A stretch of 64,000 nt of DNA from Candidatus Babelota bacterium (GTDB taxonomy: Bacteria > Babelota > Babeliae > Babelales > RVW-14), in the NCBI GenBank assembly GCA_018266175.1, contig JAFEAY010000003.1, forward strand, positions 168,642 to 232,641, given 5' to 3'. The translations under genes were made by a program, and so were the position numbers. Positions 21,670 through 23,043 of this stretch are shown one piece after another (the first letter of the stretch is position 1; the number at the start of each line of letters is the position of its first letter). The notes under the pieces were generated by a model. The model was not told where the DNA came from. It did no database searches and saw only the letters and a program-made list of their open reading frames with translations.

Positions 21670-23043
21670 ATGAATAAACGTTATAAATTGTTACTCAAGA
21701 GACTACTGCTCTGCTCGTTGCTTGCAGGAAGTACGCTCACTATTAATAGTTTAAAGGCTGAAGTAAACGAGCCTTCCCACAGCAAAGCAATTTCAGAAAT
21801 GAGAATTATTAGAGCAGAACTTGATAGGGCAAGAGAAGAAGAAAAAAAACTTTTTACCGATTATAAAAATAATAAGACACTATTAGAAGAAAAAGAAAGA
21901 GACCTTGCATCTCAAATGAATGAAAGTGACACTGGGCATATAGCCGCACTCAACGAAGAAATAAATAAACTCAAAGAATCTGTTAAAAAACACTTTACTG
22001 ACTTTCAAAATAAGCAATTTCAAGTAATGAAACTTGAAATTGAATATGACAAAAAAAAAAGCATGGTTAATCAGATGATCAGAGCATCTGAATCCCAAGT
22101 AGAGCCTGTTGAAGTTGCAGAACTTCCACTTCCTCCAGCACTATCGCACCTCACAAAATCCCGCCCTATGGGGCCAAAGGGTCGAAGACTTCCATCTCGA
22201 TGGGGTAAAAATCTAGGAACTGAAGAAACAGCTCTTGAAAGTGAGATCGCATCCACTACTGCTACTTCAGAAGATGTACCGCTTACTCAAGAAGCCCAAG
22301 AGTGCTCAATATGCATTGAAAATATAGAACCTAACAATTACGACGGTGCCCAGTTAACTTGTAATCATACTTTCCACAAAGCATGTATTGATGATTGGTT
22401 TAAAGCACAAACCGATAAAAACATTCATAAGACATGTCCGTTATGCCGAAAAGATTTCAATAACGAAAATCCTTTTAAGGTGGAGCCCTCAACTGATGAA
22501 GTTCCAACTTTAGAAGTTGCCCATGCTGCTGCACAAATTAAAGAGCAACAAAACATCCTTGCCAACTTAGAAGAAACTAAAGCAGCCGAAGAAAAAGAGC
22601 TTGTAAAAACAGAAACAAAGCTTGAAGAGGTAAAAGTACTTCCAATTGAGCCTGTTGCTCCAATCAAGAAAAAAGTTGCTCGACACAGACAAAAAATCGC
22701 TCAAAAAAATGATGCAATTGGTGTTTGTAAACGCAAAATTTACTTGCTTAAGCAGGCGCAACTCAAAGCAGCGCGACGAGCGGCTGCGCAACAAAATGCT
22801 GGTCAACCAAAAAAACAGCAGTCAGTTCAGGACTTTTATGGCGTTAAAAAAACGTCAAAACGTAAATCTCGTGTTCGCGGTAGTCGCGTAACACGTCGTG
22901 GACCAGCACGCAAGAAATCAACCAAACGTGGCGTCTCACGCAAAAAGTCGAACAAGCGTAGCTCCAAACGTAAAGGCTCAGCTAAAAAGAAATCAACTAA
23001 GAAAAAGCAAGCACGTCGACAAGCTCAACAATCAGTTGAATAA
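21670..23043 (+). CDS. Exported coiled-coil protein with RING-H2 finger and polybasic C-terminal tail (putative E3 ubiquitin ligase mimic)
   Basis: Signal peptide LLLCSLLAGSTLTINSLKA. RING-H2 spacing read directly at nt 22303-22446: CSIC-x15-CNH-x2-H-x2-C-x16-CPLC. The C-terminal ~70 aa are K/R/S-rich (KRKSRVRGSRVTRRGPARKKSTKRGVSRKKSNKRSSKRKGSAKKKSTKKK). Confidence 0.8.
   Translation: MNKRYKLLLKRLLLCSLLAGSTLTINSLKAEVNEPSHSKAISEMRIIRAELDRAREEEKKLFTDYKNNKTLLEEKERDLASQMNESDTGHIAALNEEINKLKESVKKHFTDFQNKQFQVMKLEIEYDKKKSMVNQMIRASESQVEPVEVAELPLPPALSHLTKSRPMGPKGRRLPSRWGKNLGTEETALESEIASTTATSEDVPLTQEAQECSICIENIEPNNYDGAQLTCNHTFHKACIDDWFKAQTDKNIHKTCPLCRKDFNNENPFKVEPSTDEVPTLEVAHAAAQIKEQQNILANLEETKAAEEKELVKTETKLEEVKVLPIEPVAPIKKKVARHRQKIAQKNDAIGVCKRKIYLLKQAQLKAARRAAAQQNAGQPKKQQSVQDFYGVKKTSKRKSRVRGSRVTRRGPARKKSTKRGVSRKKSNKRSSKRKGSAKKKSTKKKQARRQAQQSVE

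Follow-up and report, generated by a model that had tools for sequence, protein, structure and literature searches.

The analysis of a 64-kb stretch of Dependentiae (TM6) DNA, which we refer to as the window, identified a gene whose product carries a canonical RING-H2 finger, and we hold with moderate confidence that this product is a host-directed RING-H2 E3 ubiquitin ligase effector, probably secreted by its obligate intracellular bacterium via the Sec/type II route. The locus is modular, and the gene is one of its alleles: in sister species a constant chassis is combined with interchangeable RING, ankyrin or J-domain modules. Effectors of this kind are already known, and what is new beyond the domain call is a single locus with kept ends and an exchanged host-targeting middle; the type of gene is that expected for this lifestyle, and it extends the known picture without changing it. 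A preliminary description of the window had put the protein forward as a candidate host ubiquitin-system effector, and each part of that interpretation that could be computed from the sequence appears to hold. To our knowledge few zinc-binding RING E3 ligases are encoded by bacteria, of which only SneRING appears to have been characterised biochemically, and we know of no Dependentiae effector that has been studied functionally.

The coding sequence (21670..23043, + strand, from the ORF list, stop codon included) encodes a protein of 457 aa and is preceded, 7 nt 5′ of its ATG, by a Shine-Dalgarno sequence, AAGGAG (21657..21662, +), that was read off the sequence. A consensus scan gave a sigma-70-like promoter match, ATAACA-18-TAAAAT (21613..21642, +), which agrees at 9 of 12 positions, is a weak pattern match only and lies downstream of the upstream gene's terminator-like hairpin at 21500-21526. 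Beyond the stop codon, a terminator scan and the sequence itself give an intrinsic-terminator-like hairpin followed by a T-rich run (23068..23105, +; 11-bp stem with 9 G-C pairs), and, with these consensus matches to a promoter and a terminator on either side, the gene appears to form a single, monocistronic transcription unit. The ORF is intact, its dN/dS is well below 1, its G+C equals that of its surroundings, and the 457-aa protein is encoded identically on three independent metagenome contigs (two JGI, one Logan).

A RING-H2 finger had been proposed at 22303-22446, and a regular-expression search of the translation of 21670-23040 (+) returned exactly that interval, as aa 212-259, with the matched sequence CSICIENIEPNNYDGAQLTCNHTFHKACIDDWFKAQTDKNIHKTCPLC. 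This feature (22303..22446, +) runs from the first to the last zinc ligand, C212 to C259, while the full domain extends over approximately aa 210-263. The ligand count given earlier, C-x2-C-x15-C-x1-H-x2-H-x2-C-x16-C-x2-C, was reproduced as well: the zinc ligands are C212, C215, C231, H233, H236, C239, C256 and C259, in the order C-C-C-H-H-C-C-C, and their spacing (x2, x15, x1, x2, x2, x16, x2) fits the general RING pattern C-x2-C-x9-39-C-x1-3-H-x2-3-H-x2-C-x4-48-C-x2-C, which has a single match in the six frames of the 64-kb window and none in 50 shuffled windows. The zf-RING_2 search that the preliminary description had suggested gave a clear match to Pfam PF13639 (E=1.6e-10; 41.5 bits, with the gathering score at 27.3; all 44 model positions covered), and zf-C3HC4, zf-RING_11, zf-ANAPC11 and zf-RING_UBOX likewise scored above their own Pfam cut-offs. 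The family profile matched RNF4, RNF165/ARK2C, RLIM, RNF126, Arkadia, EL5 and RNF38 at E values of approximately 1e-15 to 1e-18.

Structure prediction, also suggested at the outset, led to the same domain. The AF2 model of the RING (a prediction with mean pLDDT 77.9 and a core of 84-91) places two predicted strands at its residues 26-29 and 34-36, followed by a helix over residues 37-49, the arrangement of a cross-brace RING fold. In a Foldseek search of this model against the PDB, the top matches were all RING E3s, and the model superposes on RNF165 (5ulk_C, from a UbcH5b~Ub complex) with an rmsd of 1.0 Å over 52 columns, a TM(target) of 0.85 and 36% identity. The Pfam, profile and Foldseek matches thus agree with the earlier view that this is a genuine zinc-ligand RING-H2 and not a U-box, NEL or HECT mimic; a U-box of the LubX/NleG/AvrPtoB type was rejected because all eight Cys/His ligands are present.

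The residues through which RING E3s contact their E2s are also present. We take I214 (in C-x-I-C), the helix residue W243, P257 (in C-P-x-C) and the post-Cys linchpin R260 to be the E2-binding and activation positions of this RING, a role well established for the corresponding residues of c-Cbl, RNF4 and RNF38. The E2-contact columns align with CPICR and CPTCR of RNF165 and RNF4, and the eight ligands, I, P and R show no variation across 16 aligned RINGs, in which W reaches at least 90% conservation, in keeping with the Trp that had been noticed at the E2-binding surface. A canonical RING-H2 with every E2-contact residue makes this protein an easy candidate for in vitro testing.

Outside the RING, the layout described earlier (signal peptide-like N-terminal segment, helices, RING, polybasic tail) was found in full, the domain order being a signal peptide-like N-terminus, a helical hairpin, a disordered Pro/basic linker, the RING-H2, a second helical hairpin and the polybasic tail. 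The signal-peptide-like N-terminus (aa 1-30; 21670..21759, +) has a basic n-region and a 14-residue hydrophobic core, LLLCSLLAGSTLTI, followed by SLKA/EV, with the small residue A30 at the putative -1 position. This N-terminal stretch, MNKRYKLLLKRLLLCSLLAGSTLTINSLKA, is the lone hydrophobic segment of the protein, and it may serve as a membrane anchor rather than being cleaved. Lipoprotein signals follow the lipobox consensus L-[AS]-[GA]-C, and the 'LLLC' of the window protein mismatches it, so a lipoprotein signal was rejected. The N-terminal helical hairpin (aa 37-142; 21778..22095, +), a variable module, was modelled by AlphaFold as helices H37-82 and H88-142 with pLDDT ~86-92, and the C-terminal hairpin (aa 281-378; 22510..22803, +) as helices H281-323 and H330-378 with pLDDT ~85-91. 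Between the first hairpin and the RING lies a linker, aa 144-211, predicted to be disordered (pLDDT <50 over aa 144-214), within which a Pro-rich/basic linear motif, LPLPPALSHLTKSRPMGPKGRRLPSR (aa 152-177; 22123..22200, +), is conserved; it is kept in the window protein, P0001 and P0003, its core LSHxTKSRPMGPKGRRxPSR recurs in P0006, and its retention is independent of cargo. The DNA match between the window and L005 at 22141-22212 spans this motif. The protein ends in a Ser/Thr-rich polybasic tail (aa 389-457; 22834..23040, +), with 31 K/R and a single D/E in the last 69 residues and pLDDT <50. The strict monopartite NLS pattern K[KR]x[KR] has no match in the tail, and we claim no nuclear localisation signal. 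In a Foldseek search with the full-length model, Vipp1/PspA, SNX-BAR and YscO helical-hairpin matches all had E>0.04 and were rejected as non-specific.

Every homologue whose contig was fetched (8 other contig sets, from sister species) occupies the same syntenic locus. Among close orthologues the signal peptide-like N-terminus, the C-terminal hairpin and the tail are constant, while the middle differs by orthologue and may consist of a RING, ANK+RING (as in P0004), ANK, nothing, or RING+DnaJ; one short orthologue contig shows a coiled coil only. In P0003, P0004, P0006 and P0007 ankyrin repeats or different helices stand where the N-terminal hairpin would be, and a DnaJ domain takes the place of the C-terminal hairpin in P0008 and P0023. 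The signal-peptide-like segment is 83-100% identical among orthologues with different cargo (dN/dS 0-0.25), and DNA homology to the ANK-bearing orthologues stops at nt 21728-21743, the end of that segment. The C-terminal hairpin is 57-95% identical among orthologues (dN/dS 0.09-0.43), and the charge of the tail is kept in all of them (24-32 K/R, at most 3 D/E; dN/dS 0.13-0.27). The preliminary description had named conservation of the Cys/His pattern in orthologues as a test of its proposal. The eight ligands are indeed invariant in all six RING-bearing orthologues, but the cassette as a whole is absent from the positional orthologues P0006, P0007 and P0021, and also from the homologue P0003, whose locus lay outside the synteny check. 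In one orthologue the RING is missing as a clean 186-bp in-frame indel. These losses or absences in several sister species lead to the conclusion that the RING is dispensable for the general role of the locus. The species between which cargo would be swapped differ by a dS of only ~0.45 at xerC, and the locus illustrates a rapid turnover of effector domain content in these parasites.

What might the constant parts do? One suggestion, which we offer as tentative and on balance unlikely, is that they make up a transferable chassis for delivering or targeting effectors secreted by the type II/Sec route, in a phylum without injection systems. The K/R-rich tail, which recurs on at least four other signal-peptide-like proteins within the 64 kb, would move cargo through or onto host membranes or bring it into the host nucleus, and recombination would swap cargo at a single hypervariable locus. 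Were this the case, the locus would be a handle on how Dependentiae effectors get to the host cytosol. The sister-species series itself amounts to a set of natural constructs with which delivery and targeting can be separated from activity.

A different role for the same parts is conceivable, although we think it doubtful, in which the polybasic tail and hairpin hold the exported protein on the acidic envelope (LPS or outer membrane) and the N-proximal RING, ANK or J-domain is shown to the host, the RING acting as a local E3 at the interface of bacterium and vacuole. Consistent with such display, the protein varies in its N-proximal part and is constant in its C-terminal part, a layout shared by many display proteins anchored at the surface; each of the five K/R-dense proteins encoded in the window begins with a signal-peptide-like segment (Fisher p=0.018); and the bacterial proteins associated with SneRING in Simkania are surface proteins (PMC12591485). 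However, Pfam and NCBIfam searches detected no known anchoring domain, and if the bacterium resides in a vacuole, a surface RING would miss the cytosolic E2~Ub. Two of the polybasic proteins flank the RING gene and are syntenic in all related contigs: the upstream neighbour (20566..21435, +) has a signal-peptide-like N-terminus and 29 K/R in a 60-aa window, and the downstream neighbour (23308..24234, +) has 31 K/R in a 60-aa window and a signal-peptide-like N-terminus, MNKISKKLLLCALLVGG, that resembles that of the RING protein. Neither neighbour has a Pfam, NCBIfam or PADLOC match, and the RING protein itself has none in NCBIfam or PADLOC. Paralogy of the RING protein with three other polybasic proteins was considered and rejected, as BLASTP gave no real homology beyond the similar signal peptide of the downstream neighbour; judged from their sequences, the likeness among the polybasic proteins is one of composition and architecture rather than demonstrable paralogy.

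Is the RING catalytic? Sequence matches are unable to prove catalysis, the length of loop 2 (x16) is unusual, being 6-7 residues greater than in the P0008 and P0023 orthologues, and some RINGs, such as BARD1 and BMI1, are inactive alone and need a partner. It is thus imaginable that the domain is a non-catalytic zinc module that blocks host ubiquitination, whether as a decoy or sponge for E2 or through plain protein-protein interaction. We regard this as improbable, since the E2-contact and linchpin positions of active monomeric and dimeric RING-H2 E3s are all kept, active E3s are the nearest matches both by structure and by profile, and the RING is under purifying selection (dN/dS 0.03-0.27; between distant orthologues, synonymous sites are saturated).

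The RING had been described as part of a bacterial protein, and the genomic context bears this out, the gene lying in a bacterial chromosome, beside mutS, cmk, nth and xerC; in its neighbourhood are the signal-peptide-like polybasic proteins, a PP2C, MutS, Nth and XerC. The ThrRS of the window is 100% identical to the NCBI entry 'threonine--tRNA ligase' of Candidatus Dependentiae bacterium (on a 461-kb contig), and the further labelled ThrRS matches are Babeliales/Dependentiae, save one MAG labelled Epsilonproteobacteria; from these matches we conclude that the organism is a Dependentiae bacterium. The only MAG from the contig scan with a family alignment is labelled 'uncultured Pseudomonadota', which conflicts with the ThrRS result and which we discounted as a coarse or wrong label. 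Rfam and tRNA scans of the 64-kb window found nothing, and the window holds no secretion genes.

The same neighbourhood bears on a very improbable reading, in which the RING would be part of an endogenous system for ubiquitin-like conjugation or anti-phage defence (of the Bil/Bub type, or one of the prokaryotic RING systems known from comparative genomics) and would act inside the bacterium. Operons that combine E1, E2, E3-like, DUB and Ubl genes are indeed known from bacteria (PMC10557695, PMC11601596). However, no E1, E2, Ubl or JAB gene is among the annotated neighbours (the UQ_con, ThiF and ubiquitin Pfam models had 0 matches among the 34 window proteins scanned) and PADLOC matched no defence system in the neighbourhood; further, the RING gene appears to be monocistronic, its product has a putative export signal, the ankyrin and J-domain modules that the locus carries in other species suggest that its target is eukaryotic, and the RING is close to eukaryotic RING-H2 domains, such as that of RNF165.

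As to where the RING came from, the donor may have been a protist or a giant virus. Searched exhaustively with HMMER, the full family profile had 53,047 matches, mostly generic RING proteins; at E<=1e-30 there were 10 cluster representatives, 9 of them family members, and the tenth, P0022, which lacks the chassis and has several RINGs in tandem, was placed outside the family. A word-indexed protein search with the RING only gave 8 weak matches (29 candidates), did not return the family itself and was of no help in tracing the donor lineage. Small proteins harbour the nearest RINGs outside the family, and P0017, the only contig examined, is compact, rich in ORFans and virus-like, which would be in line with an artefact, either a mis-assembled eukaryotic or giant-virus fragment or a decaying pseudogene, but as far as the data allow this is refuted by the recovery of the gene with the same bacterial synteny in 15 independently assembled contigs from 14 samples or runs (including the three with the identical protein), by its Shine-Dalgarno sequence, terminator-like hairpin and matching G+C, and by its intact ORF and low dN/dS.

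Besides the domain identity, the E2-contact residues, the purifying selection, the organism and its secretion context, the host-directed reading is favoured because the other cargos at the locus, ankyrin repeats and a J-domain, are eukaryote-interaction modules, because there is no bacterial ubiquitin-like system in the neighbourhood, and because SneRING offers the precedent of an active bacterial RING E3 (PMC12591485). If it is correct, the predicted N-terminal signal peptide would take the unfolded protein via Sec into the periplasm, where it would probably be cleaved, and the type II system would carry it on towards the host cytosol. Once in the host cell, the RING-H2 would bind two zinc ions in a cross-brace. 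Ile214, Trp243 and Pro257 would form the docking site for a host UbcH5/UBE2D-type E2 charged with ubiquitin, and the linchpin Arg260 would stimulate release of the ubiquitin onto bound substrates or the effector. The helical hairpins could provide oligomerisation or substrate binding, and the polybasic tail could target the protein either to host membranes or to nucleic acid and the nucleus, in each case an acidic surface. Several considerations count against an effector: a Sec-exported domain with seven Cys, six of which are zinc ligands, must cross the oxidising periplasm and only then load zinc; the 64 kb hold no secretion genes; the RING cassette is not retained throughout the sister species; and loop 2 carries its 6-7 residue insertion.

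Among the closest known systems are the eukaryotic RING-H2 E3s of the RNF165/ARK2C-Arkadia-RNF38-RLIM-RNF126-EL5/ATL group, which share the domain's C3H2C3 pattern, its fold (the superposition on RNF165) and its E2-contact and linchpin residues. However, their loop 2 is 10 residues in the aligned examples as opposed to 16 in the window protein, and the latter is encoded by a bacterial gene and has a putative Sec signal peptide and unrelated flanking domains. The recruitment of host E2~Ub by a domain of RING/U-box fold that is proposed here is likewise the strategy of LubX, GobX and RavN of Legionella, NleG of EHEC and AvrPtoB of Pseudomonas syringae. These effectors have zinc-free U-box folds that are held together by hydrogen bonds and salt bridges and are often unrecognisable by sequence, and they are injected by type III or type IV systems without a Sec signal peptide, whereas the window protein keeps eight zinc ligands and has a putative export signal.

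True RINGs had been called rare in bacteria, which stands in general but needs amending to the extent that RING proteins have already been reported in Babela, Simkania and Cardinium. Like the window protein, SneRING (SNE_A12920) of Simkania negevensis is a bacterial protein with a true RING fold. Its source is an intracellular bacterium that infects amoebae, and in experiments SneRING was active with E2s of the UbcH5 type (PMC12591485). It has, however, atypical ligands (His at ligand 3 and NxxC for CxH) and a Ser in place of a hydrophobic E2-contact residue, whereas the window protein is a textbook RING-H2 with all canonical contacts; SneRING also belongs to the Chlamydiota, combines an N-terminal RING with an alpha/beta domain and has no reported signal peptide. 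CAHE_p0026 of Cardinium hertigii (PMC5698495) is a predicted RING E3 with ankyrin repeats from an intracellular symbiont and can be compared with the ANK+RING orthologue P0004, although it is plasmid-borne, comes from a Bacteroidota symbiont of an insect host, has no known shared chassis and is likened here by architecture only. Nearest by taxonomy is a RING finger protein mentioned in Babela massiliensis, also of the Dependentiae (Pagnier et al. 2015, PMC4378268), with which the window protein shares phylum, protist-parasite lifestyle, prediction as an E3 component and a context of signal-peptide-bearing eukaryote-like proteins; it was, however, mentioned without characterisation, no modular locus was described, and it is likened here by description only. 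No Babela member was traced among the 10 cluster representatives at E<=1e-30.

Export through Sec and type II secretion would be in keeping with what has been published on the phylum. The Dependentiae are obligate parasites of protists, and their signal-peptide-bearing eukaryote-like proteins are presumed effectors (PMC6561590, PMC4378268). In Chromulinavorax signal peptides were found on 44% of CDS and 78% of ankyrin proteins, and Sec export was inferred (PMC6561590); in Babela massiliensis type II is the only secretion system, and 79 of 126 ankyrin proteins have signal peptides (PMC4378268). Components of type II secretion are among the orthologues common to 6 or 7 of the 7 TM6 genomes compared (PMC4776705). 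Approximately half of the genes in the window encode signal-peptide-like N-termini, including those for LRR, PP2C and C2H2-like Cys/His-rich proteins, a share in line with the reports on cultured Dependentiae.

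The general RING consensus matched only once across the six reading frames of the window by regular-expression search, at residues 212-259 of the 457-residue protein (nt 22303-22446), and gave 0 matches in 50 shuffled windows. The preliminary description had placed a RING-H2 finger, spaced C-x2-C-x15-C-x-H-x2-H-x2-C-x16-C-x2-C, at exactly these coordinates, and Pfam agreed: zf-RING_2 scored 41.5 bits over its whole 44-position model (gathering score 27.3, E=1.6e-10), and several related RING models exceeded their own thresholds. In a 16-sequence alignment of RING regions from the family and its nearest outside matches, the eight ligands, the Ile between Cys 1 and Cys 2, the Pro after ligand 7 and the Arg following the final Cys were invariant, and the helix Trp, which had been singled out earlier as an E2-binding feature and is W243 here, was conserved in at least 90%. 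Ile, Trp and Pro at these positions are E2-contact residues, and the Arg is the "linchpin" that activates E2~Ub (c-Cbl, RNF4, RNF38). A profile built from this alignment matched solved structures of active RING-H2 ligases, including RNF4, RNF165/ARK2C, RLIM, RNF126, Arkadia, EL5, RNF38 and RNF13, with E-values of 1e-15 to 1e-18. The AlphaFold2 model of residues 198-275 (mean pLDDT 77.9, core 84-91) superposed on RNF165 from its UbcH5b~Ub complex with an rmsd of 1.0 Å over 52 columns, and the top matches in a structure search with it were all RING E3s. Judged by its ligand pattern the domain is a zinc-ligand RING, which rules out a U-box, and every in silico membership test placed the protein with RING-H2 proteins of the RNF165/Arkadia/RNF38/ATL type.

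The gene (21670..23043, + strand) has a Shine-Dalgarno sequence, AAGGAG, 7 nt before its ATG. It looks like a single transcription unit because terminator-like hairpins lie on both sides, one after the upstream gene (21500-21526) and a strong one with a T-rich run after its own stop codon (hairpin 23068-23095), and a weak promoter-like match precedes it (21613-21642). The full-length AlphaFold model and composition analysis bear out the predicted layout of an N-terminal signal-peptide-like segment, a coiled coil before the RING, modeled as a helical hairpin, and a polybasic tail after it. Residues 1-30, the protein's sole hydrophobic segment, comprise a basic n-region, a 14-residue core and a putative cleavage site (...SLKA, then EV); confident helical hairpins (37-142 and 281-378) flank the RING (212-262), and the tail (389-457), predicted to be disordered, contains 31 K/R, 15 S/T and 1 D/E, with no match to the strict monopartite NLS pattern. 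A fold search with the full-length model returned generic helical-hairpin matches only and was uninformative. The disordered linker (144-211) contains a conserved Pro-rich/basic motif, LPLPPALSHLTKSRPMGPKGRRLPSR (residues 152-177, window 22123-22200), which persists in relatives with differing middle modules (in full in P0001 and P0003, its core in P0006) and in which KSRPMGP is a candidate SH3 ligand by the class-I pattern, [RK]xxPxxP.

The neighboring housekeeping genes are bacterial (mutS, cmk, phoH2, nth, xerC, trpS, murF, ftsK, thrS). The window's ThrRS is 100% identical to the NCBI entry "threonine--tRNA ligase [Candidatus Dependentiae bacterium]", on a 461-kb contig, and the next labeled matches are from Babeliales/Dependentiae (62-66% identity) with one exception, a MAG labeled Epsilonproteobacteria (69%). 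The label "uncultured Pseudomonadota" on the sole related genome in the species-representative collection was judged unreliable. Signal-peptide-like N-termini occur on about half of the window's approximately 40 genes, including those of an LRR protein, a PP2C phosphatase and four proteins rich in Cys/His that carry poly-Asn tracts. This abundance matches cultured Dependentiae: in Chromulinavorax signal peptides are found on 44% of CDS and 78% of ankyrin proteins, with Sec export inferred (PMC6561590), and in Babela on 79 of 126 ankyrin proteins; in that genome no secretion system but type II was detected, and its ubiquitin-related genes include "a RING finger domain protein" (PMC4378268). The core orthologs common to seven TM6 genomes include type II components as well (PMC4776705).

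How widespread is this protein? A word-indexed search turned up no more than about eight relatives. When 1.84 billion representatives were searched exhaustively with HMMER, 10 matched at E<=1e-30: nine family members plus P0022, a tandem multi-RING protein lacking the constant parts described below; the remaining ~53,000 matches were generic RING proteins. Every family member with a fetched contig occupies the same locus, in the order polybasic gene, RING-protein gene or its ortholog, polybasic gene, nth, xerC, methyltransferase, with flanks of 76-91% DNA identity and XerC at 98% protein identity (dS 0.44-0.53), so that by synteny they are positional orthologs in sister species. The close orthologs have in common a signal peptide (83-100% identity), C-terminal hairpin and polybasic tail, between which the middle module, or cargo, is exchanged: a helical hairpin and RING in the window and P0001, RING only in P0005, ankyrin and RING in P0004, ankyrin only in P0006 and P0007, and no cargo in P0021. 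P0003, encoded on a 1.2-kb contig and compared at the protein level, has a different coiled coil and no RING. In P0008 and P0023 conservation is limited to a similar signal peptide and tail, and a coiled coil, RING and DnaJ are present, the last replacing the C-terminal hairpin.

The boundaries of these exchanges are sharp. DNA homology between the window and the ankyrin alleles ends at nt 21728-21743, where the signal peptide ends, and restarts directly in front of the RING in L004 (22289) and shortly behind it in L005 to L008 (22483-22588). P0004 and P0006 differ by a clean 186-bp in-frame indel that is exactly the RING (L004 about 1620-1810 versus L005 about 2015-2070), with near-identical DNA on either side; because (G/C)AGAG microhomology borders it, the comparison suggests a recent deletion, consistent with illegitimate recombination. 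A further presence/absence polymorphism at the locus also involves a eukaryote-like gene: the PP2C phosphatase gene (19250-20257, +), whose product has a hydrophobic N-terminus, is missing from L003, the closest syntenic contig, where the first polybasic gene directly follows mutS (6521-6523). Conservation of the Cys/His pattern in orthologs, on which the original proposal depended, therefore held in part: wherever the cassette occurs the pattern is intact, but some species lack the cassette entirely. Where the RING is present its dN/dS is 0.03-0.27, with synonymous sites saturated between distant orthologs, and all ligands and E2-contact residues are unchanged. By the same measure the signal peptide (up to 0.25), hairpin (0.09-0.43) and tail (0.13-0.27; 24-32 K/R and at most three acidic residues in orthologs) are under constraint as well.

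What, then, does the protein do? We consider a host-directed RING-H2 E3 ligase effector the likeliest reading, with somewhat better than even confidence, and all available computation from sequence and models supports the original proposal of a candidate host ubiquitin-system effector. The analysis shows domain identity, predicted fold, residue conservation, selection, organism and locus structure; beyond these, we infer that the protein would be exported by Sec with cleavage of its signal peptide, released via the type II system or in vesicles, and enter the host; it would load zinc, recruit a host E2~Ub of the UbcH5 type via I214, W243 and P257, and use R260 as the linchpin in catalysis, while the helical hairpins may serve oligomerization or substrate binding and the polybasic tail may target an acidic surface. 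That the tail instead displays the protein on the bacterial surface is a minority possibility, and that the RING is a non-catalytic E2 decoy is somewhat less probable still. Membership in an endogenous bacterial ubiquitin-like or defense system is very improbable, as a scan of 34 proteins turned up no E1, E2 or Ubl neighbor and PADLOC had no match. An assembly artifact can practically be dismissed, the gene being on 15 independently assembled contigs from 14 samples/runs, including three with an identical protein, and having the G+C of its surroundings. The homology search with the RING alone returned too few matches to point to a donor lineage; the sole nearest-neighbor contig examined, that of P0017, is virus-like.

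In a Dependentiae parasite a gene of this type is to be expected, and precedents exist, but this one is unusually clean and testable. Its predicted way of working is like that of the eukaryotic RING-H2 E3s (RNF165/Arkadia/RNF38/ATL type). The classical bacterial mimics LubX, NleG and AvrPtoB, unlike this zinc-ligand RING, are U-boxes that bind no zinc and rely on injection systems for delivery. The Cardinium RING-ankyrin protein is among the closest bacterial cases (PMC5698495); Simkania SneRING shows activity in vitro, yet its ligands are atypical and the hydrophobic E2-contact residue is missing (PMC12591485), and the Babela RING finger protein, from the same phylum, is uncharacterized (PMC4378268). 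Less expected were how canonical the RING is and the exchange of cargo on a constant export signal and tail at a single orthologous locus, which offers a route into the question of Dependentiae effector delivery. Another secreted bacterial RING protein, from a different lineage, may be the metagenome-derived P0026 (L016 3891-5312), which combines a signal-peptide-like N-terminus with three RING-H2 domains in tandem; its contig is compact, and the adjoining gene there encodes a nucleoside transporter.

Several other genes in the window merit mention. Four further K/R-rich proteins (20566-21435, 23308-24234 and 42857-43588, +; 27022-27834, -) have signal-peptide-like N-termini and 23-34 K/R per 60 residues, and the three compared with the RING protein showed no demonstrable homology to it beyond a similar signal peptide in the downstream neighbor; all five K/R-dense window proteins have such N-termini (Fisher one-sided p=0.018), which suggests that the pattern extends across this organism's proteome. 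Another four proteins, also with signal-peptide-like N-termini (4808-6106, 6178-6837 and 7033-7671, -; 11263-12801, +) lack a Pfam match and have long poly-Asn/Gln tracts and repeated C2H2 zinc finger-like Cys/His motifs, e.g., LRSHLMTQHNVCWYCP; they appear to form a further family of secreted proteins directed at eukaryotes. Two tandem paralogs, also with signal-peptide-like N-termini (31782-33089 and 33119-34648, -), have in common the motif GHGLHC(A/G)YYALWNALC, reminiscent of a cysteine-protease active site and possibly that of a deubiquitinase; neither has a Pfam/NCBIfam match, and a PDB sequence search with the first found none. Three Phe-terminal paralogs of ~470-500 residues with signal peptides (40151-41665, 43753-45159 and 50821-52296, +) look like outer-membrane beta-barrels or porins, with no Pfam match for the two scanned and no NCBIfam match for the first. 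The 981-residue LRR protein (222-3167, +), which has a hydrophobic N-terminus, and the adjoining calcineurin-like (PPP-type) phosphoesterase (3227-4654, -) are further candidate host-interaction genes. Finally, genes for an AAA-ATPase/PD-(D/E)XK nuclease, an Rpn-type PD-(D/E)XK transposase-like protein and an AAA_14/DUF4143 protein (45298-47070, 47186-48097 and 61143-62300, +) may form a mobile or defense-related island, because window G+C falls to about 0.35 at 48-50 kb.
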